A stretch of 64,000 bases of DNA from Escherichia coli (lineage in GTDB: Bacteria; Pseudomonadota; Gammaproteobacteria; Enterobacterales; Enterobacteriaceae). Location: NCBI RefSeq assembly GCF_003334335.1, contig NZ_QOWQ01000004.1. One strand, 5' to 3'. The position numbers were made by a program, and so were the translations under genes. The notes below the pieces were generated by a model. That model saw only the letters and a program-made list of their open reading frames with translations. It had not been told where the DNA came from and searched no databases. Every line of letters starts with the position of its first letter. Position 1 is the first letter of the stretch. This document shows positions 3,217-13,556 of the stretch, one piece after another.

Positions 3217-3310
3217 TTCTCCCTCTCCCTGTGGGAGAGGGCCGGGGTGAGGGCATCAGCGCGCACGTTCACCCTCACCCTAACCCTCTCCCTCAAGGGA
3301 GAGGGGACCG
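3217..3310. repeat. GC-rich imperfect-palindromic intergenic repeat (BoxC-like) between hrpB and mrcB
   Basis: Two inverted copies of ctccctctccctgtgggagaggg..gggtgaggg; family name is from memory and uncertain. Confidence 0.55.
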
Positions 3311-3403
3311 ATCGAGCACAAATTTTGAGAGATATCTTCTTCTGTCTTGTAACAGAAGAACAGAAAATCGGGCTTTTGCGCCTGAATATTGCGGAGAAAA
3401 AGC

Positions 3404-5938
3404 ATGGCCGGGAATGACCGCGAGCCAATTGGACGCAAAGGGAAACCGACGCGTCCGGTCAAACAAAAGGTAAGCCGTCGTCGTTACGAAGATGACGATG
3501 ATTACGACGATTATGATGACTATGAGGATGAAGAACCGATGCCGCGCAAAGGTAAGGGCAAAGGCAAAGGGCGTAAGCCTCGTGGCAAACGCGGCTGGCT
3601 ATGGCTACTGCTAAAACTGGCTATCGTTTTTGCCGTGCTGATCGCCATTTACGGCGTTTATCTCGATCAAAAAATTCGTAGCCGTATTGATGGCAAGGTC
3701 TGGCAACTGCCTGCGGCAGTTTATGGCCGAATGGTCAATCTTGAGCCAGACATGACCATCAGCAAGAACGAGATGGTGAAGCTGCTGGAGGCGACCCAGT
3801 ATCGTCAGGTGTCGAAAATGACCCGTCCTGGCGAATTTACCGTGCAGGCCAACAGCATTGAGATGATTCGCCGTCCGTTTGATTTCCCGGACAGTAAAGA
3901 AGGACAGGTGCGCGCGCGTCTGACCTTTGATGGCGATCATCTGGCGACGATCGTCAATATGGAGAACAACCGTCAGTTCGGTTTCTTCCGTCTTGATCCG
4001 CGTCTGATCACCATGATCTCTTCGCCAAACGGTGAGCAGCGTCTGTTTGTGCCGCGCAGTGGTTTCCCGGATTTGCTGGTGGATACTTTGCTGGCGACAG
4101 AAGACCGTCATTTTTACGAGCATGATGGAATCAGTCTCTACTCAATCGGACGTGCGGTGCTGGCAAACCTGACCGCCGGACGCACGGTACAGGGTGCGAG
4201 TACGCTGACGCAACAGCTGGTGAAAAACCTGTTCCTCTCCAGCGAGCGTTCTTACTGGCGTAAAGCGAACGAAGCTTACATGGCGCTGATCATGGACGCG
4301 CGTTACAGCAAAGACCGTATTCTTGAGCTGTATATGAACGAGGTGTATCTCGGTCAGAGCGGCGACAACGAAATCCGCGGCTTCCCGCTGGCAAGCTTGT
4401 ATTACTTTGGTCGCCCGGTAGAAGAGCTAAGCCTCGACCAGCAGGCGCTGTTAGTCGGTATGGTGAAAGGGGCGTCCATCTACAACCCGTGGCGTAACCC
4501 AAAACTGGCGCTGGAGCGACGTAATCTGGTGCTGCGTCTGCTGCAACAGCAACAGATTATTGATCAAGAACTCTATGACATGTTGAGTGCCCGTCCGCTG
4601 GGGGTTCAGCCGCGCGGTGGGGTGATCTCTCCTCAGCCAGCCTTTATGCAACTGGTGCGTCAGGAGCTGCAGGCAAAACTGGGCGATAAGGTAAAAGATC
4701 TCTCCGGCGTGAAGATCTTCACTACCTTTGACTCGGTGGCCCAGGACGCGGCAGAAAAAGCCGCCGTGGAAGGCATTCCGGCACTGAAGAAACAGCGTAA
4801 GTTGAGCGATCTTGAAACTGCGATTGTGGTCGTCGACCGCTTTAGTGGTGAAGTTCGTGCGATGGTCGGAGGTTCTGAGCCGCAGTTTGCGGGCTACAAC
4901 CGTGCGATGCAGGCGCGTCGTTCGATTGGTTCCCTTGCAAAACCAGCGACTTATCTGACGGCCTTAAGCCAGCCGAAAATCTATCGTCTGAATACGTGGA
5001 TTGCGGATGCGCCAATTGCGCTGCGTCAGCCGAATGGCCAGGTCTGGTCACCGCAGAATGATGACCGTCGTTATAGCGAAAGCGGCAGAGTGATGCTGGT
5101 GGATGCGTTGACCCGTTCGATGAACGTGCCGACGGTAAATCTGGGGATGGCGCTGGGGCTGCCTGCGGTTACGGAGACCTGGATTAAACTGGGCGTACCG
5201 AAAGATCAGTTGCATCCGGTTCCGGCAATGCTGCTGGGGGCGTTGAACTTAACGCCAATCGAAGTGGCGCAGGCATTCCAGACCATCGCCAGCGGTGGTA
5301 ACCGTGCACCGCTTTCTGCGCTGCGTTCGGTAATCGCGGAAGATGGCAAAGTGCTGTATCAGAGCTTCCCGCAGGCGGAACGCGCTGTTCCGGCGCAGGC
5401 GGCGTATCTGACACTATGGACCATGCAGCAGGTGGTACAACGCGGTACGGGTCGTCAGCTTGGGGCGAAATACCCGAACCTGCATCTGGCAGGGAAAACA
5501 GGGACTACCAACAATAACGTAGATACCTGGTTTGCGGGCATTGACGGCAGCACGGTGACCATCACCTGGGTCGGCCGTGATAACAACCAGCCGACCAAAC
5601 TGTATGGTGCCAGCGGGGCAATGTCGATTTATCAGCGTTATCTGGCTAACCAGACGCCAACGCCGCTGAATCTTGTTCCGCCAGAAGATATTGCAGATAT
5701 GGGCGTGGACTACGACGGCAACTTTGTTTGCAGCGGTGGCATGCGTATCTTGCCGGTCTGGACCAGCGATCCGCAATCGCTGTGCCAGCAGAGCGAGATG
5801 CAGCAGCAGCCGTCAGGCAATCCGTTTGATCAGTCTTCTCAGCCGCAGCAACAGCCGCAACAGCAACCTGCTCAGCAAGAGCAGAAAGACAGCGACGGTG
5901 TAGCCGGTTGGATCAAGGATATGTTTGGTAGTAATTAA
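3404..5938 (+). CDS. mrcB: Penicillin-binding protein 1B (bifunctional glycosyltransferase/transpeptidase)
   Basis: ORF 3389..5938; start at ATG 3404 ([14 protein letters not shown]...) gives 844 aa; acidic D/Y-rich N-terminus, TM helix, transpeptidase motifs, Q-rich C-terminus. Confidence 0.95.
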
Positions 5939-6091
5939 CATCTAAGCGTGAAATACCGGATGGCGAGTTGCCATCCGGTAAAATAACATCCCATCTAAGA
6001 TATTAACCCTTTCTTTTCATCTGGTTGTTTATTAACCCTTCAGGAACGCTCAGATTGCGTACCGCTTGCGAACCCGCCAGCGTTTCGAATA

Positions 6092-6134
6092 TTATCTTAT
6101 CTTTATAATAATCATTCTCGTTTACGTTATCATT
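6092..6134. promoter_or_regulatory. Fur box(es) in the fhuA promoter
   Basis: attatcttatctttataataatcattctc and gttatcattc resemble the GATAATGATAATCATTATC consensus, 25-65 nt upstream of fhuA. Confidence 0.7.
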
Positions 6135-6157
6135 CACTTTACATCAGAGATATACCA

Positions 6158-8401
6158 ATGGCGCGTTCCAAAACTGCTCAGCCAAAACACTCACTGCGTA
6201 AAATCGCAGTTGTAGTAGCCACAGCGGTTAGCGGCATGTCTGTTTATGCACAGGCAGCGGTTGAACCGAAAGAAGACACTATCACCGTTACCGCTGCACC
6301 TGCGCCGCAAGAAAGCGCATGGGGGCCTGCTGCAACTATTGCGGCGCGACAGTCTGCTACCGGCACTAAAACCGATACGCCGATTCAAAAAGTGCCACAG
6401 TCTATTTCTGTTGTGACCGCCGAAGAGATGGCGCTGCATCAGCCGAAGTCGGTAAAAGAAGCGCTTAGCTACACGCCGGGTGTCTCTGTTGGTACGCGTG
6501 GCGCATCCAACACCTATGACCACCTGATCATTCGCGGCTTTGCGGCAGAAGGCCAAAGCCAGAATAACTATCTGAATGGCCTGAAGTTGCAGGGCAACTT
6601 CTATAACGATGCGGTCATTGACCCGTATATGCTGGAACGCGCTGAAATTATGCGTGGCCCGGTTTCCGTGCTTTACGGTAAAAGCAGTCCTGGCGGCCTG
6701 TTGAATATGGTCAGCAAGCGTCCGACCACCGAACCGCTGAAAGAAGTTCAGTTTAAAGCCGGTACTGACAGCCTGTTCCAGACTGGTTTTGACTTTAGCG
6801 ATTCGTTGGATGATGACGGTGTTTACTCTTATCGCCTGACCGGTCTTGCGCGTTCTGCCAATGCCCAGCAGAAAGGGTCAGAAGAGCAGCGTTATGCTAT
6901 TGCACCGGCGTTCACCTGGCGTCCGGATGATAAAACCAATTTTACCTTCCTTTCTTACTTCCAGAACGAGCCGGAAACCGGTTATTACGGCTGGTTGCCG
7001 AAAGAGGGAACCGTTGAGCCGCTGCCGAACGGTAAGCGTCTGCCGACAGACTTTAATGAAGGGGCGAAGAACAACACCTATTCTCGTAATGAGAAGATGG
7101 TCGGCTACAGCTTCGATCACGAATTTAACGACACCTTTACTGTGCGTCAGAACCTGCGCTTTGCTGAAAACAAAACCTCGCAAAACAGCGTTTATGGTTA
7201 CGGCGTCTGCTCCGATCCGGCGAATGCTTACAGCAAACAGTGTGCGGCATTAGCGCCAGCGGATAAAGGCCATTATCTGGCACGTAAATACGTCGTTGAT
7301 GATGAGAAGCTGCAAAACTTCTCCGTTGATACCCAGTTGCAGAGCAAGTTTGCCACTGGCGATATCGACCACACCCTGCTGACCGGTGTCGACTTTATGC
7401 GTATGCGTAATGACATCAACGCCTGGTTTGGTTACGACGACTCTGTGCCACTGCTCAATCTGTACAATCCGGTGAATACCGATTTCGACTTCAATGCCAA
7501 AGATCCGGCAAACTCCGGCCCTTACCGCATTCTGAATAAACAGAAACAAACGGGCGTTTATGTTCAGGATCAGGCGCAGTGGGATAAAGTGCTGGTCACC
7601 CTAGGCGGTCGTTATGACTGGGCAGATCAAGAATCTCTTAACCGCGTTGCCGGGACGACCGATAAACGTGATGACAAACAGTTTACCTGGCGTGGTGGTG
7701 TTAACTACCTGTTTGATAATGGTGTAACACCTTACTTCAGCTATAGCGAATCGTTTGAACCTTCTTCGCAAGTTGGGAAGGATGGTAATATTTTCGCACC
7801 GTCTAAAGGTAAGCAGTATGAAGTCGGCGTGAAATATGTACCGGAAGATCGTCCGATTGTAGTTACTGGTGCCGTGTATAATCTCACTAAAACCAACAAC
7901 CTGATGGCGGACCCTGAGGGTTCCTTCTTCTCGGTTGAAGGTGGCGAGATCCGCGCACGTGGCGTAGAAATCGAAGCGAAAGCGGCGCTGTCGGCGAGTG
8001 TTAACGTAGTCGGTTCTTATACTTACACCGATGCGGAATACACCACCGATACTACCTATAAAGGCAATACGCCTGCACAGGTGCCAAAACACATGGCTTC
8101 GTTGTGGGCTGACTACACCTTCTTTGACGGTCCGCTTTCAGGTCTGACGCTGGGCACCGGTGGTCGTTATACTGGCTCCAGTTATGGTGATCCGGCTAAC
8201 TCCTTTAAAGTGGGAAGTTATACGGTCGTGGATGCGTTAGTACGTTATGATCTGGCGCGAGTCGGCATGGCTGGCTCCAACGTGGCGCTGCATGTTAACA
8301 ACCTGTTCGATCGTGAATACGTCGCCAGCTGCTTTAACACTTATGGCTGCTTCTGGGGCGCAGAACGTCAGGTCGTTGCAACCGCAACCTTCCGTTTCTA
8401 A
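6158..8401 (+). CDS. fhuA: TonB-dependent outer-membrane ferrichrome receptor FhuA
   Basis: 747-aa ORF with signal peptide, TonB-box region and C-terminal aromatic beta-barrel terminus (..TFRF). Confidence 0.95.
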   Translation: MARSKTAQPKHSLRKIAVVVATAVSGMSVYAQAAVEPKEDTITVTAAPAPQESAWGPAATIAARQSATGTKTDTPIQKVPQSISVVTAEEMALHQPKSVKEALSYTPGVSVGTRGASNTYDHLIIRGFAAEGQSQNNYLNGLKLQGNFYNDAVIDPYMLERAEIMRGPVSVLYGKSSPGGLLNMVSKRPTTEPLKEVQFKAGTDSLFQTGFDFSDSLDDDGVYSYRLTGLARSANAQQKGSEEQRYAIAPAFTWRPDDKTNFTFLSYFQNEPETGYYGWLPKEGTVEPLPNGKRLPTDFNEGAKNNTYSRNEKMVGYSFDHEFNDTFTVRQNLRFAENKTSQNSVYGYGVCSDPANAYSKQCAALAPADKGHYLARKYVVDDEKLQNFSVDTQLQSKFATGDIDHTLLTGVDFMRMRNDINAWFGYDDSVPLLNLYNPVNTDFDFNAKDPANSGPYRILNKQKQTGVYVQDQAQWDKVLVTLGGRYDWADQESLNRVAGTTDKRDDKQFTWRGGVNYLFDNGVTPYFSYSESFEPSSQVGKDGNIFAPSKGKQYEVGVKYVPEDRPIVVTGAVYNLTKTNNLMADPEGSFFSVEGGEIRARGVEIEAKAALSASVNVVGSYTYTDAEYTTDTTYKGNTPAQVPKHMASLWADYTFFDGPLSGLTLGTGGRYTGSSYGDPANSFKVGSYTVVDALVRYDLARVGMAGSNVALHVNNLFDREYVASCFNTYGCFWGAERQVVATATFRF

Positions 8402-8451
8402 TTTCTCTTTTGGGGCACGGATTTCCGTGCCCATTTCACAAGTTAGCTGTT

Positions 8452-9249
8452 ATGCAGGAATACACGAATCATTCCGATACCACTTTTGCACTGCGTAATA
8501 TCTCCTTTCGTGTGCCCGGGCGCACGCTTTTGCATCCGCTGTCGTTAACCTTTCCTGCCGGGAAAGTGACCGGTCTGATTGGTCACAACGGTTCTGGTAA
8601 ATCCACTCTGCTCAAAATGCTTGGCCGTCATCAGCCGCCGTCGGAAGGGGAGATTCTTCTTGATGCCCAACCGCTGGAAAGCTGGAGCAGCAAAGCGTTT
8701 GCCCGCAAAGTGGCTTATTTGCTGCAGCAGCTTCCTCCGGCAGAAGGGATGACCGTGCGTGAACTGGTGGCGATTGGTCGTTACCCGTGGCATGGCGCGC
8801 TGGGGCGCTTTGGGGCGGCAGATCGCGAAAAAGTCGAGGAAGCTATCTCGCTGGTTGGCTTAAAACCGCTGGCGCATCGGCTGGTCGATAGTCTCTCTGG
8901 CGGCGAACGTCAGCGGGCGTGGATCGCCATGCTGGTGGCGCAGGATAGCCGTTGTCTGTTGCTCGACGAACCGACCTCGGCGCTGGATATCGCCCACCAG
9001 GTTGATGTGCTGTCGCTGGTGCACCGTTTAAGTCAGGAGCGTGGCCTGACGGTCATTGCCGTGTTGCACGATATCAATATGGCGGTACGCTACTGTGATT
9101 ATCTGGTCGCCCTGCGCGGCGGTGAAATGATTGCTCAGGGAACGCCTGCGGAAATTATGCGCGGCGAAACCCTCGAAATGATTTATGGCATCCCGATGGG
9201 TATTTTGCCGCATCCGGCGGGTGCTGCACCTGTGAGTTTTGTTTATTGA
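8452..9249 (+). CDS. fhuC: Ferric hydroxamate ABC transporter ATP-binding protein FhuC
   Basis: ORF 8410..9249 trimmed to ATG 8452 (MQEYTNHSDTTF...), 265 aa; Walker A GHNGSGKST, ABC signature LSGGERQR. Confidence 0.93.
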   Translation: MQEYTNHSDTTFALRNISFRVPGRTLLHPLSLTFPAGKVTGLIGHNGSGKSTLLKMLGRHQPPSEGEILLDAQPLESWSSKAFARKVAYLLQQLPPAEGMTVRELVAIGRYPWHGALGRFGAADREKVEEAISLVGLKPLAHRLVDSLSGGERQRAWIAMLVAQDSRCLLLDEPTSALDIAHQVDVLSLVHRLSQERGLTVIAVLHDINMAVRYCDYLVALRGGEMIAQGTPAEIMRGETLEMIYGIPMGILPHPAGAAPVSFVY

Positions 9250-10139
9250 TGAGCGGCTTACCTCTTATTTCGCGCCGTCGACTGTTAACGGCGATGGCGC
9301 TTTCTCCGTTGTTATGGCAGATGAATACCGCCCACGCGGCGGCTATTGATCCCAATCGTATTGTGGCGCTGGAGTGGTTGCCGGTGGAATTACTGCTGGC
9401 GCTCGGCATCGTGCCTTACGGCGTGGCGGATACCATCAACTATCGCCTGTGGGTCAGCGAACCACCATTGCCGGACTCAGTGATCGACGTCGGTTTGCGC
9501 ACAGAACCTAACCTTGAACTGCTGACCGAAATGAAACCATCGTTTATGGTCTGGTCGGCAGGATATGGCCCTTCACCAGAAATGCTGGCTCGTATTGCGC
9601 CGGGTCGCGGATTTAACTTCAGTGACGGCAAACAGCCGTTGGCGATGGCGCGTAAATCGCTGACGGAAATGGCAGATTTACTTAACCTGCAAAGCGCAGC
9701 GGAAACGCATTTAGCGCAATATGAAGACTTTATCCGCAGCATGAAACCCCGCTTTGTGAAGCGTGGTGCGCGTCCGTTATTGCTGACGACGCTTATCGAT
9801 CCGCGCCATATGCTGGTCTTCGGTCCAAACAGCTTGTTCCAGGAAATTCTTGATGAGTACGGCATCCCAAATGCCTGGCAAGGGGAAACCAACTTCTGGG
9901 GCAGTACCGCCGTCAGTATCGATCGTCTGGCGGCGTATAAAGACGTTGATGTGCTCTGTTTTGATCACGACAACAGCAAAGACATGGATGCGCTAATGGC
10001 AACGCCGCTGTGGCAGGCCATGCCGTTTGTCCGCGCCGGACGCTTTCAGCGCGTACCTGCAGTCTGGTTTTATGGTGCGACGCTCTCGGCAATGCACTTT
10101 GTGCGCGTTCTGGATAACGCCATCGGAGGTAAAGCGTGA
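9249..10139 (+). CDS. fhuD: Periplasmic ferric hydroxamate-binding protein FhuD
   Basis: ATG 9249 overlaps the fhuC stop (TGATG); 296 aa with RR-containing signal peptide. Confidence 0.93.
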   Translation: MSGLPLISRRRLLTAMALSPLLWQMNTAHAAAIDPNRIVALEWLPVELLLALGIVPYGVADTINYRLWVSEPPLPDSVIDVGLRTEPNLELLTEMKPSFMVWSAGYGPSPEMLARIAPGRGFNFSDGKQPLAMARKSLTEMADLLNLQSAAETHLAQYEDFIRSMKPRFVKRGARPLLLTTLIDPRHMLVFGPNSLFQEILDEYGIPNAWQGETNFWGSTAVSIDRLAAYKDVDVLCFDHDNSKDMDALMATPLWQAMPFVRAGRFQRVPAVWFYGATLSAMHFVRVLDNAIGGKA

Positions 10140-12118
10140 GTAAACGAATTGCGCTTTTCCCGGCGTTATTGCTGGCGCTGTTAGTGATTGTCGCTACGGC
10201 GCTCACCTGGATGAACTTCTCGCAGGCGCTGCCGCGTAGCCAGTGGGCGCAGGCTGCCTGGTCGCCGGATATTGACGTCATCGAGCAGATGATTTTTCAC
10301 TACAGCTTGTTGCCGCGTCTGGCGATTTCGCTGCTGGTGGGCGCGGGTCTGGGGCTGGTGGGCGTGCTGTTTCAGCAAGTGCTGCGTAACCCGCTGGCGG
10401 AGCCGACGACGCTTGGCGTTGCTACAGGCGCGCAACTGGGGATTACCGTCACTACGCTCTGGGCGATCCCTGGTGCGATGGCGAGCCAGTTTGCTGCGCT
10501 GGCAGGGGCTTGTGTTGTTGGCTTAATTGTCTTTGGCGTCGCGTGGGGGAAACGGCTGTCGCCGGTAACGCTGATTCTCGCGGGGTTGGTAGTGAGCCTT
10601 TATTGCGGCGCAATCAATCAGTTACTGGTTATCTTCCATCATGACCAACTGCAAAGCATGTTTCTGTGGAGCACTGGAACGCTGACGCAAACCGACTGGG
10701 GCGGCGTTGAGCGTTTATGGCCGCAGCTGCTGGGCGGTGTGATGCTGACGTTGCTGCTACTTCGTCCGTTAACCCTGATGGGGCTTGATGATGGCGTGGC
10801 GCGCAATCTCGGGCTGGCCTTGTCGCTTGCGCGTCTGGCGGCGCTGTCGCTGGCGATTGTCATCAGTGCGCTGCTGGTGAACGCTGTGGGGATTATCGGC
10901 TTTATCGGGTTGTTCGCGCCGCTGCTGGCAAAAATGCTGGGGGCGCGGCGTCTGCTGCCACGACTGATGCTGGCGTCGTTGATTGGTGCGCTGATCCTCT
11001 GGCTTTCCGATCAAATCATCCTCTGGCTGACTCGCGTGTGGATGGAAGTGTCCACCGGTTCGGTCACTGCGTTGATCGGTGCGCCGCTGCTACTGTGGCT
11101 GTTGCCGCGTTTACGCAGCATTAGCGCGCCGGATATGAAGGTCAACGATCGTGTCGCGGCTGAACGCCAACATGTGCTGGCGTTTGCCCTCGCGGGCGGC
11201 GTGCTGCTGTTGATGGCTGTGGTGGTGGCGCTGTCGTTTGGTCGTGATGCGCACGGCTGGACGTGGGCGAGCGGGGCGTTGCTCGAGGATTTAATGCCCT
11301 GGCGCTGGCCGCGAATTATGGCGGCGCTGTTTGCGGGCGTCATGCTGGCGGTGGCGGGCTGTATTATTCAGCGACTGACCGGAAACCCGATGGCAAGCCC
11401 GGAAGTGCTGGGGATTAGCTCCGGCGCGGCGTTTGGCGTGGTGTTGATGCTGTTTCTGGTGCCGGGTAATGCCTTTGGCTGGCTGTTACCTGCAGGCAGT
11501 CTCGGCGCGGCGGTGACGCTGTCGATCATTATGATCGCCGCCGGCCGCGGTGGATTTTCCCCACACCGTATGTTACTGGCGGGGATGGCGTTAAGCACCG
11601 CGTTCACCATGCTTTTGATGATGTTGCAGGCAAGTGGTGACCCGCGAATGGCGCAAGTGCTGACCTGGATTTCCGGTTCGACCTACAACGCGACCGATGC
11701 GCAGGTCTGGCGCACCGGAATTGTGATGGTGATTTTGCTGGCGATTACCCCGCTGTGCCGCCGCTGGCTGACCATTTTACCGCTGGGTGGTGATACCGCC
11801 CGAGCCGTAGGAATGGCGCTGACGCCGACGCGAATTGCGCTGCTGCTGTTAGCGGCTTGCCTGACGGCGACCGCGACGATGACTATTGGACCGTTGAGTT
11901 TTGTTGGTTTAATGGCACCGCATATTGCGCGGATGATGGGCTTTCGACGGACGATGCCACACATCGTAATTTCGGCGCTGGTGGGTGGTTTACTGCTGGT
12001 GTTCGCTGACTGGTGTGGGCGGATGGTGCTGTTTCCATTCCAGATCCCGGCGGGGCTGCTGTCAACCTTTATCGGCGCGCCATATTTTATCTATTTGTTG
12101 AGAAAGCAGAGCCGTTAA
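10136..12118 (+). CDS. fhuB: Ferric hydroxamate ABC transporter permease FhuB (fused double permease)
   Basis: 660-aa polytopic membrane protein; GTG start at 10136 overlaps the fhuD stop (GTGA). Confidence 0.93.
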   Translation: MSKRIALFPALLLALLVIVATALTWMNFSQALPRSQWAQAAWSPDIDVIEQMIFHYSLLPRLAISLLVGAGLGLVGVLFQQVLRNPLAEPTTLGVATGAQLGITVTTLWAIPGAMASQFAALAGACVVGLIVFGVAWGKRLSPVTLILAGLVVSLYCGAINQLLVIFHHDQLQSMFLWSTGTLTQTDWGGVERLWPQLLGGVMLTLLLLRPLTLMGLDDGVARNLGLALSLARLAALSLAIVISALLVNAVGIIGFIGLFAPLLAKMLGARRLLPRLMLASLIGALILWLSDQIILWLTRVWMEVSTGSVTALIGAPLLLWLLPRLRSISAPDMKVNDRVAAERQHVLAFALAGGVLLLMAVVVALSFGRDAHGWTWASGALLEDLMPWRWPRIMAALFAGVMLAVAGCIIQRLTGNPMASPEVLGISSGAAFGVVLMLFLVPGNAFGWLLPAGSLGAAVTLSIIMIAAGRGGFSPHRMLLAGMALSTAFTMLLMMLQASGDPRMAQVLTWISGSTYNATDAQVWRTGIVMVILLAITPLCRRWLTILPLGGDTARAVGMALTPTRIALLLLAACLTATATMTIGPLSFVGLMAPHIARMMGFRRTMPHIVISALVGGLLLVFADWCGRMVLFPFQIPAGLLSTFIGAPYFIYLLRKQSR

Positions 12119-12138
12119 TTTTTCCATATAACGGCCCT

Positions 12139-12266
<128 letters not shown>

Positions 12267-12275
12267 CATGCTGGA

Positions 12276-13556
12276 TCACAACTTCGCAAACACCCGACGT
12301 GCAGCATCGATGGTGTTATTGATATCTTCCATGCTGTGCGCCACGGACATAAAGCCCGCTTCAAACGCTGACGGTGCCAGGTAAACACCTTCGCCCAGCA
12401 TCATATGGAAGAAACGCTTAAAGCGTTCCACGTCACAGGCCATCACATCCTGATAGCACGTCACGGACTCGGCGTCGGTAAAGAAAATACCGAACATGCC
12501 GCCAACGTGGTTAACGACCAGCGGAATTCCGGCTTCTTCTGCCGCTTCCAGCAGACCTTCTGCCAGACGTGTTGTCAGCTCATCCAGCGTTTCGTGAACG
12601 CCCGGCTGCGCGACTTCATTCAGACAGGCGAAACCCGCTGCCATCGCAATCGGGTTACCGGAAAGCGTACCCGCCTGATAGACCGGACCCGTCGGGGCCA
12701 GCGCATCCATTACATCACGACGACCACCGAATGCGCCTACCGGCATTCCACCGCCGATGATTTTGCCGAGGCAGGTTAAATCTGGCACTACGCCGTAATA
12801 ATCCTGTGCGCCAGCTAGCGCTACGCGGAAACCGGTCATCACTTCATCGATGATCAGCAACGCGCCAAATTCGTCGCACAGCGCGCGCAGACCTGGCAGG
12901 AACTCTGGCAGCGGCGGAACACAGTTCATATTGCCTGCCACCGGCTCGACGATAATACAGGCAATCTCTTGCGGGTATTGCTCAAATGCGGCGCGTACAG
13001 AAGCCAGATCATTATAAGTACAGGTTAAGGTATGTTTGGCGAAATCTGCCGGAACGCCCGGCGAGTTTGGCTGGCCTAACGTGAGTGCGCCAGAACCGGC
13101 TTTCACCAGCAGGCAGTCAGCGTGACCATGGTAACACCCTTCAAATTTAATAATTTTGTCGCGACCGGTAAAACCACGGGCCAGGCGGATGGCGCTCATG
13201 GTCGCTTCAGTGCCGGAGTTCACCATGCGCACCATATCCATGGTCGGGACCAGTTCGGTCACCAGTTGCGCCATTTTCACTTCCATTTCGGTTGGTGCAC
13301 CAAAGCTTAAACCACGCTCGGCGGCTTCAATCACGGCATTGCGGATTGCCGGATGGTTATGGCCCAGCACCATCGGCCCCCAGGAACCGACATAATCGAT
13401 ATAGGCTTTGCCATCAACATCGTACAGATAAGCGCCGTCCGCTTTTTCGATAAACAGTGGAGTGCCGCCCACGCCAGTAAAGGCGCGAACAGGGGAGTTC
13501 ACACCGCCAGGGATCAGCTCGCGCGCTGCGCTGTAAAGATTTTCAGACTTACTCAT
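12276..13556 (-). CDS. hemL: Glutamate-1-semialdehyde 2,1-aminomutase
   Basis: 426-aa [29 protein letters not shown]..., PLP aminotransferase class III. Confidence 0.95.

Follow-up and report, generated by a model that had tools for sequence, protein, structure and literature searches.

In the malEFG operon, the malE message is stabilised by REP sequences: the intercistronic stem-loop protects the upstream message and raises the expression of the upstream gene over that of the genes downstream. The hairpin that lies between fhuA and fhuC in Escherichia coli resembles the malE REPs in its placement but, while REPs are multi-copy elements with a consensus, it is single-copy and locus-specific. 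The closest described parallel is found in the fec system, where a stem-loop follows the gene of a TonB-dependent receptor and precedes the genes of an ABC transporter, all within one Fur-controlled operon. The fecA-fecB hairpin lowers the transcription of fecBCDE and leaves a stable fecA mRNA of 2.5 kb (Enz 1995, as cited in Braun 2022, PMC9249621). In both systems a discrete receptor-only mRNA is present (2.5 kb for fecA, 2.34 kb for fhuA) and the polycistronic RNA is scarce. The sequences of the two hairpins are unrelated and, while the effect of the fec hairpin and the trimming of the RNA rest on Northern and RT-PCR experiments, the evidence for fhuA comes from genome-wide read data. The fecA-type arrangement, with a stem-loop between receptor and transporter genes, was found here in 79 Enterobacteriaceae as well as in Erwinia, Ewingella and Serratia.

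Two further classes of elements are relevant for comparison. The fhuA-fhuC hairpin is like the intrinsic terminators located within operons (Yan 2018) in having a G+C-rich stem with a short loop, a partial read-through and an RNA end located a few nucleotides past the stem. It differs from a canonical intrinsic terminator in its tail, AUUUC, with 3 U in 8 positions, which is below the usual definition of a U-rich tract of about 7-8 nt. In fact, among the features by which canonical intrinsic terminators are recognized, the stem-loop and the in vivo 3' end are both present and the U-rich tract is missing in E. coli; for this last reason the element is not classed as a canonical intrinsic terminator. 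The other class is that of the protective stem-loops described by Dar and Sorek (2018, PMC6061677), with which the hairpin shares a stable stem, the lack of a U-rich tail and a precise end and, perhaps, a downstream excess of C over G. These elements, however, are usually placed at the ends of transcription units, whereas the fhuA-fhuC hairpin is inside an operon.

The window analysed is a stretch of 64,000 nucleotides of E. coli DNA in which fhuA, fhuC, fhuD and fhuB (Table 1) are colinear with b0150-b0153 of K-12, in agreement with the RefSeq annotation of the matching E. coli genomes. Subtraction of 161326 from a K-12 coordinate gives the window coordinate, an offset obtained from the coordinates of the coding sequences. 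When a 701-nt query spanning the site was compared with 5,426 complete E. coli genomes, fhuA and fhuC were matched in 5,424 of them, at up to 99.7% identity. The published transcription start site (TSS) at K-12 position 167427 corresponds to window position 6101, 6 nt beyond the TATTAT element of the promoter-like site of fhuA, and a Fur-box-like sequence, ATAATAATCATTCTC, is located just downstream of this site and TSS.

The spacer between the fhuA stop codon (TAA, 8399-8401) and the fhuC ATG (8452) is 50 nt long (8402-8451) and reads TTTCTCTTTTG GGGCACGG ATTT CCGTGCCC ATTTCACAAGTTAGCTGTT. A previous sequence-only reading of this DNA had delimited a range that coincides exactly with the spacer, and had placed in it, at 8413-8432, a hairpin GGGCACGG-ATTT-CCGTGCCC with 8 perfect pairs; coordinates and pairing are both confirmed, with 7 of the 8 pairs being G-C and a loop of 4 nt. 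The same reading had remarked that no T run follows, and this also holds true: the tail after the stem, ATTTCACA (RNA AUUUCACA), starts with ATTTCAC and has 3 T in 8 positions, and a consensus terminator scan made no call at the hairpin. Owing to the 3 U in 8 and to the absence of a call in that scan, an efficient factor-independent termination is doubtful. The folding energy of the isolated hairpin is -15.9 kcal/mol; in a context of 91 nt it is -22.4 kcal/mol, with z = -2.6 versus shuffles, and the stem is the core of both the minimum-energy and the centroid folds. The stem begins 11 nt past the fhuA stop codon, just outside the reach of a ribosome terminating on fhuA, and its end is 19 nt from the fhuC ATG. 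In this interval the motif AAGTTAG, which ends 5 nt before the ATG, is the putative ribosome-binding site of fhuC; K-12 and most relatives have AAGTTGG, the window carrying an A in place of the G at 8445. A scan of positions 5500-13000 against Rfam, with E-values up to 10, found no family at the hairpin; the sole match there was a 22-bit hit to NmsRb, at chance level.

Table 1. Positions, in window coordinates, of the fhu genes and of the elements at and around the fhuA-fhuC junction.
Feature	Position	Strand	Basis
Promoter-like site of fhuA (TTGCGA, 18 nt, TATTAT) with published TSS	6066..6101	+	Promoter scan, sequence, Yan 2018
fhuA CDS, 747 aa, ferrichrome outer-membrane receptor	6158..8401	+	ORF list, NCBIfam NF007465 (1473 bits), RefSeq
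Two published TSSs within fhuA (K-12 169123 and 169214)	7797 and 7888 (span 7783..7888)	+	Yan 2018, sequence
Pyrimidine-rich 11-nt spacer from stop codon to stem, TTTCTCTTTTG	8402..8412	+	Sequence
Hairpin 5' arm, GGGCACGG	8413..8420	+	Sequence, fold, arms of relatives, covariance-model alignment
Hairpin loop, ATTT	8421..8424	+	Sequence; variable among relatives
Hairpin 3' arm, CCGTGCCC	8425..8432	+	Sequence, fold, arms of relatives, covariance-model alignment
C-over-G stretch directly past the hairpin	8430..8557	+	C/G 1.4-1.9, 90th-98th percentile of the + strand
Degenerate short U tract, AUUUC	8433..8437	+	Sequence; published RNA 3' end at 8437
Weak Shine-Dalgarno-like motif before fhuC, AAGTTAG	8440..8446	+	Position and conservation
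fhuC CDS, 265 aa, ABC transporter ATPase	8452..9249	+	ORF list, NCBIfam (570 bits)
fhuD CDS	9246-10139	+	ORF list, NCBIfam equivalog model match
fhuB CDS	10136-12118	+	ORF list, NCBIfam equivalog model match

The transcripts of E. coli K-12 have been characterized by SMRT-Cappable-seq, a method that sequences full-length RNAs carrying a 5'-triphosphate (Yan 2018, PMC6131387). In the Rich_TTS sheet of this dataset one row reads 167427 - 169763, forward, 506, 86, 15, 225, 826, novelTTS, b0150, and describes a transcript from rich medium that covers fhuA (b0150) only, with a length of 2,337 nt; 506 reads begin at TSS 167427 and 86 stop exactly at the transcript end (TTS) 169763. This 3' end corresponds to window position 8437, the C of AUUUC, 5 nt past the stem, although it might be 8438, since an A tail is added by the method and 8438 is an A. 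A 3' end at the hairpin was precisely the check that the sequence-only reading had named. The term "novelTTS" indicates an end unmatched to any known terminator or attenuator, and the main text of the paper makes no mention of fhu (Yan 2018, PMC6131387). The RNA end of the hairpin is catalogued, though neither a mutational test of it nor an experiment dedicated to it was found in the literature, and a full-text search for the fhuA-fhuC junction, for dyad symmetry at fhuA and for fhuA in Term-seq data found nothing relevant.

The fraction of transcripts ending at this site depends on how the sheet is read. Columns 7 and 8 of the Rich sheet are apparently swapped, since its rows with a median read-through of 0 are exactly those with 0 in column 8, whereas in the M9 sheet a median of 0 goes with a 0 in column 7. 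According to the swapped reading, 225 reads pass the site and 15 end at most 50 nt away from it, so that about 31% (101/326) stop, and the median read-through extension is 826 nt, reaching approximately the end of fhuC. With the header taken literally, about 95% of the reads stop at or near the hairpin. Under both column readings there is a called, partial transcript end at the hairpin, and it was called in rich medium only, being absent from the M9 sheet. The operon variants sharing TSS 167427 are fhuA (labelled 'BinomialEnd'), fhuA-fhuC and fhuA-fhuC-fhuD (Yan 2018, Supplementary Data 2, PMC6131387); among the rows listed around b0150 there is no four-gene variant from this TSS, in a dataset whose long reads are biased against RNAs of 6 kb. 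The rest of the operon, fhuD and fhuB (9246..12118), relies on read-through of the hairpin. Moreover, the two TSSs within fhuA are preceded by good -10 elements (TGGTAATAT at 7783-7791 and TATAAT at 7877-7882), and the RNAs starting from them cross the hairpin into fhuC and into fhuC-fhuD (Yan 2018, PMC6131387).

From a methodological perspective, SMRT-Cappable-seq reports steady-state ends, so that termination and trimming are indistinguishable. The main alternative, considered less likely, is that the stem is only a protective or processing element, at which no polymerase stops and to which RNA ends generated further downstream are trimmed back. These ends would originate from Rho-dependent termination in a poorly translated fhuC or from endonuclease cleavage, and PNPase or RNase II would do the trimming. 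This proposal fits the class defined by Dar and Sorek (2018, PMC6061677), in which precise ends, stable stem-loops, U-poor tails and a mild downstream excess of C over G occur together; at the fhu locus the tail is U-poor as well, and the next ~130 nt have a C/G ratio of 1.4-1.9, in the 90th-98th percentile. The C-over-G stretch, which lies within coding sequence, might possibly act as a Rho-loading region, and the weakness of the Shine-Dalgarno-like motif of fhuC would favour Rho entry. The reads that pass the hairpin extend by a median of only 826 nt and end near the end of fhuC, a further point in favour of this alternative. On the other hand, E. coli has UUU at positions 2-4 past the stem and the mapped end is right at the end of this short run; neither fhuA nor fhuC appears in the list of Rho regions based on bicyclomycin treatment (Adams 2021); and it has been argued that 5'-triphosphate transcripts resist RNase E processing (Yan et al., PMC6131387). 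Neither a Term-seq 3' end nor a Rho region from fhuA to fhuC is present in the curated lists of Adams 2021, which refer to cells grown in LB and M63 and were queried by gene name, by b-number and by coordinates. This absence is a weak negative because the Fur-repressed operon is weakly expressed in those iron-replete media.

Further information on the fate of these RNAs has been obtained with a mutant of poly(A) polymerase (pcnB), in which the expression of the operon is lowered, that of fhuC and fhuD more than that of fhuA, and in which an RNA of about 700 nt over the 3' part of fhuA accumulates, in the mutant only (Maes 2017, PMC5389530). Having been seen with a fhuA 3' probe, this RNA must end near the end of fhuA, and its dependence on poly(A) polymerase is compatible with its ending in a stable hairpin. 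The accumulation of the ~700-nt RNA is as expected for an RNA with a stable terminal hairpin. The fragment also matches the role of poly(A) in the degradation of short structured decay intermediates, a point in favour of the purely protective stem (PMC5389530). In the same study RNase E, RNase III and Hfq each failed to provide the explanation (Maes 2017, PMC5389530). The occurrence of a discrete 3' end and of shorter RNAs derived from the 3' portion of fhuA (the ~700-nt fragment and those from the internal TSSs) could also be read as the sign of a small RNA ending at the hairpin. This is regarded as extremely improbable: Rfam gives no match; a U run, as is normal for Hfq-binding small RNAs, is missing from the tail; Hfq inactivation has no effect on the transcript (Maes 2017, PMC5389530); the stem is preceded by a 3' UTR of just 11 nt, which is variable; and a literature search found no paper that connects fhuA with RIL-seq or with small RNAs derived from 3' UTRs.

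The conservation of the hairpin was analysed by a scan of one genome per species, which gave 80 Enterobacteriaceae loci with a FhuC identity of 89-98%; 79 spacers were compared, namely that of the window and those of 78 of the 80 loci. A perfect stem of 7-10 bp is found at the same place in all 79. In the relatives it starts 7-11 nt past the fhuA TAA (17 nt in two of them) and leaves 17-25 nt up to the fhuC ATG, with a loop of 3-6 nt and variable sequence. Twelve distinct 5' arms occur among the 79 spacers, each with a matching 3' arm. A plain MAFFT alignment mis-registers stems of unequal loop length, and a covariance-model alignment was used instead; such an alignment leans towards the given structure, hence the arms were also counted from the raw sequences. 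In the covariance-model alignment of 81 sequences, 99.1% of the cells are standard pairs and 3 of the 8 pairs (31 cells) show compensatory changes. None of 500 shuffles equalled the alignment in paired cells, in cells with a change on both sides or in covariation score, while the number of pairs with two-sided change (3) was matched in 74 of 500. Pairing drops to 34-63% when the partner is slid by 1-3 columns, and RNAalifold yields the same stem unaided. In the raw sequences, pair 5 is A-U in 54 and G-C in 27 of the 81 and nothing else; on a neighbour-joining tree of fhuC-fhuD DNA it has undergone at least five changes with no intermediates. These repeated switches between A-U and G-C show that there is selection on the pairing of the RNA.

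Outside the Enterobacteriaceae, the stem is GGGCGCGG/CTGCGCCC in Erwinia aphidicola and GGGCACG/CGTGCCC, followed by ATTTCC, in Ewingella; in Serratia marcescens a different G+C-rich stem, CCGGGGCG/CGCCCCGG, occupies the same place. Within E. coli the stem is unchanged in five aligned sequences, the variation being confined to the loop and to the positions just past the stem, and the hairpin sequence occurs at one place per genome in 4,327 matching genomes. This comparative evidence shows the RNA pairing to be under selection across the Enterobacterales.

The same data bear on the proposal that the hairpin is a chance palindrome, a repeated extragenic element or a protein-binding site at the DNA level, with no role in RNA. 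A few perfect 8-bp hairpins are indeed expected in 64 kb: dinucleotide shuffles of the window contain 6.5 +/- 3.1 perfect hairpins with a stem of 8 bp or more and a loop of 3-8 nt, as against 25 observed (nested calls counted), and palindromes can in principle bind a dimeric protein. When only stems with at least 7 G-C pairs are considered, 7 are observed and 0.9 are found in the shuffles, which gives a chance expectation of ~0.005 for one given 50-nt spacer. The stronger argument against a chance origin is the conservation with compensatory changes, which settles the question. Pairing is kept by these changes while the sequence varies, and a loop of 3-6 nt would shift the spacing of the half-sites; variable loop length and compensatory changes together point to an RNA stem rather than to a DNA-binding site. 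Furthermore, each E. coli genome having the sequence contains one copy of it, and an RNA end maps beside it. Hardly any probability is thus left to the chance, repeat and DNA-binding readings, which are refuted by the arms, the covariation, the RNA end and the copy number. A REP or BIME was considered separately and rejected: the element is single-copy and has no naRNA4/REP match in Rfam, while the REPs located after fhuB (12147-12267) were detected.

While the stem is constant, the tract that follows varies: counted over the first 8 nt past the stem, the 79 spacers comprise 20 with 7 T, one with 6 T, 24 with 4-5 T and 34 with 2-3 T. The 7-T tails belong to Enterobacter (where the tail is UUUUUAUUU), Leclercia, Pluralibacter and others; Citrobacter and Salmonella, with GTTTTAC, fall in the group with 4-5 T, and Escherichia, Klebsiella, Raoultella and Kluyvera in that with 2-3 T, while the tails of Erwinia and Serratia have almost no T. 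When two outgroups are added and the tail is counted slightly differently, at least 6 U are found in 21 of 81 sequences, and the state of "strong tract" has changed at least five times on the tree. The U-tract score that was calculated provides a relative ranking only, not a calibrated terminator score. With 7 U in 8 behind the stem, the 20 spacers of the first group are predicted to contain a textbook intrinsic terminator. This suggests that termination is at least a frequent state of the junction, which weighs against a stem that is only protective. Conversely, the stem is kept in genera with no U tract, in keeping with protection, and its equal conservation in Klebsiella, Raoultella, Serratia and Erwinia implies that termination of RNA polymerase is not its sole conserved role. 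A switching of terminator type through the U content behind a constant stem was predicted by Dar and Sorek (2018, PMC6061677), and the fhuA junction displays the predicted pattern across genera.

Another alternative assigns to the junction a role in translation: the hairpin, or a pairing around it between CUAAU (fhuA stop region) and GUUGG (fhuC motif), would control the translation of fhuC, for example by making it dependent on the ribosomes that finish fhuA. This is judged very unlikely. The minimum-energy fold does pair 8398-8404 with 8440-8446 around the hairpin, the outer columns are pairable in 81.5% of the cells (81 sequences), and the distance from stem to ATG is kept at 17-25 nt. The outer pairing, however, is almost devoid of covariation and absent from the RNAalifold prediction, and the stop codon and the ribosome-binding motif account by themselves for its conservation; the hairpin, for its part, leaves both the Shine-Dalgarno-like motif and the ATG uncovered. 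The longer helix between stop region and Shine-Dalgarno-like motif, although it can form in most species, was rejected because of this near lack of covariation and of RNAalifold support.

Lineages that have lost fhuA are informative in this respect. In two of them fhuCDB is found directly behind a Fur-box promoter, beside mrcB. In Enterobacter sp. BIGb0383 (L056) only a remnant is left of the stem, GGGCACGG CGTG CTGTTCCC, with a folding energy of just -6.6 kcal/mol, and the AAGTTGG motif before fhuC is kept; in Symbiopectobacterium (L088) no such stem is present before fhuC. The decay of the stem upon loss of fhuA, with fhuC and AAGTTGG remaining, weighs against a translational device for fhuC and, although there are two cases only, indicates that the function of the stem lies with fhuA, at its end, and not with the beginning of fhuC.

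The best-supported reading is that the hairpin is a leaky stem-loop that forms the 3' end of a fhuA-only mRNA and allows read-through into fhuCDB. As to how it does so, a mixed picture is held to be probable, with moderate confidence: the stem would act with UUU as a weak intrinsic terminator and would, in addition, shield the fhuA mRNA from 3' exonucleases. Starting from the Fur-controlled promoter of fhuA, the RNA polymerases would transcribe the stem-loop and AUUUC; part of them would then release the RNA, in the manner of weak intrinsic termination, while the remaining ones would continue into fhuC, fhuD and fhuB. The stem would then stop the exonucleases proceeding in the 3'-to-5' direction, so that the 2.34-kb fhuA mRNA would persist and the downstream RNA would decay, with the outcome of more message for the receptor, an abundant outer-membrane protein, than for the catalytic inner-membrane transporter. 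In this scheme RNA polymerase itself probably stops at the hairpin in E. coli, the stem probably prolongs the life of the fhuA mRNA, and end signal and protection together may set the protein ratio between FhuA and the transporter. The sequence-only reading had suggested either an element for mRNA stability or processing or a partial terminator, and as a disjunction this is supported by the end at 8437, the read-through variants and the compensatory changes.

A more speculative extension, considered unlikely, is that the U tract provides each lineage with a natural dial for the receptor:transporter ratio; in its bolder version, read-through would be conditional in E. coli itself. This last idea comes from the end being called in rich medium and not in M9, and from the loss of pcnB hitting fhuC and fhuD harder. 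If read-through were conditional, the supply of FhuA could be uncoupled from that of FhuCDB by growth state, and the TSSs within fhuA could provide the shared FhuCDB transporter separately, at a basal level. The junction could also be a natural example of the switch between an intrinsic 3' end and one defined by Rho or exonucleases.

The kind of element described here is textbook matter and its RNA end is already in a public dataset. Current understanding is unchanged by it, given that leaky ends within operons are common in E. coli, that fecA-fecB is a precedent and that the end is already public. What seems modestly new is the comparative side: the depth of conservation, the independent compensatory switches numbering at least five, the turnover of the U tract and the decay of the stem upon loss of fhuA. 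The result is relevant to the interpretation of RNA-seq data on the iron regulon, to the annotation of fhuA as a transcription unit of its own and to the engineering of fhu expression, and it offers a small illustration of the evolution of terminator strength, with a constant stem and a U tract turning over. FhuA is a major receptor for phages, colicins and antibiotics and is needed in far greater numbers than FhuCDB, a transporter that also serves further receptors of the hydroxamate type; a leaky end at the fhuA-fhuC junction would be a simple route to unequal output from a single Fur-controlled promoter.

In the SMRT-Cappable-seq data from E. coli K-12, primary transcription starts lie within fhuA at K-12 positions 169123 and 169214 (window 7797 and 7888), and transcripts of fhuC and of fhuC-fhuD arise from them (Yan 2018, PMC6131387). 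From the first of these starts to the RNA end at K-12 169763, 5 nt past the 8-bp stem between fhuA and fhuC (the fhuA-end hairpin, 8413-8432), the distance is 641 nt (window 7797-8437), near the size of an RNA of "about 700 nt" that comprises the 3' part of fhuA, is seen only in a pcnB (poly(A) polymerase) mutant and was ascribed to cleavage (Maes 2017, PMC5389530). This RNA could instead be a primary transcript, running from the internal promoter to the hairpin. In the Rich_TTS sheet of Yan 2018 Supplementary Data 1, the contents of the columns headed "passing-through" and "within 50 bp downstream" appear to have changed places: median read-through is 0 exactly where column 8 is 0, whereas in the M9 sheet it tracks column 7. 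Read-through percentages from the Rich sheet need caution.

In Serratia marcescens (L085 2454-2500) a different G+C-rich stem, CCGGGGCG...CGCCCCGG (-22 kcal/mol), occupies the same position after fhuA, without a U tract; the gene table of this locus has no called gene in the fhuA region, yet a 599-aa ORF ends there. fhuA is missing in Enterobacter sp. BIGb0383 (L056 1279-1500) and Symbiopectobacterium (L088 2287-2500), where mrcB is directly followed by fhuCDB behind a Fur-box-like promoter, and the fhuA-end hairpin is decayed in the former and absent in the latter.

Downstream of the stem, the conserved AAGTTGG (8440-8446), 5 nt upstream of the fhuC ATG, is probably a weak ribosome-binding site. 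Position 8445 within it is A in the window and G in five E. coli sequences, K-12 among them. A set of 5,426 complete E. coli genomes contains no exact copy of window 8402-8462: it yields 4,327 matches, each with at least one mismatch. The A would weaken the pairing of this motif with 16S rRNA and would change U-G to U-A in a possible stop-codon:SD pairing.

Other hairpins and repeats are found in the window (see table). The hairpin behind mrcB, followed on the plus strand by AAAATAA and not by a T run, is another gene-end stem-loop without U's. The near-identical pair, upstream of the long ORF 3389-5938 (mrcB), resembles two copies of an intergenic repeat element. The repeats behind fhuB likely provide the complete operon transcript with its 3' structure.

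Promoter-like elements, hairpins and repeats in the window
Feature	Window position	Location	Basis
TGGTAATAT	7783-7797 region	inside fhuA; 6 nt upstream of start 7797	sequence
Perfect TATAAT	7877-7888 region	inside fhuA; 6 nt upstream of start 7888	sequence
Second terminator-like hairpin CGTGTGCCCGGGCGCACG, then CTTTTG	8509-8526	inside fhuC, 57 nt in	
REP-type repeats	12147-12267	just 3' of fhuB	Rfam naRNA4, 46.6 and 37.7 bits (below gathering score)
11-bp perfect hairpin TACCGGATGGC-GAGTT-GCCATCCGGTA	5954-5980	just 3' of mrcB	
Two near-identical hairpins CCCTCTCCC...GGGAGAGGG	3221-3241 and 3284-3305	63 nt apart	

FhuCDB also serves other hydroxamate receptors. Given the starts inside fhuA and the elements 6 nt upstream of them, FhuCDB may have a supply independent of the fhuA promoter.
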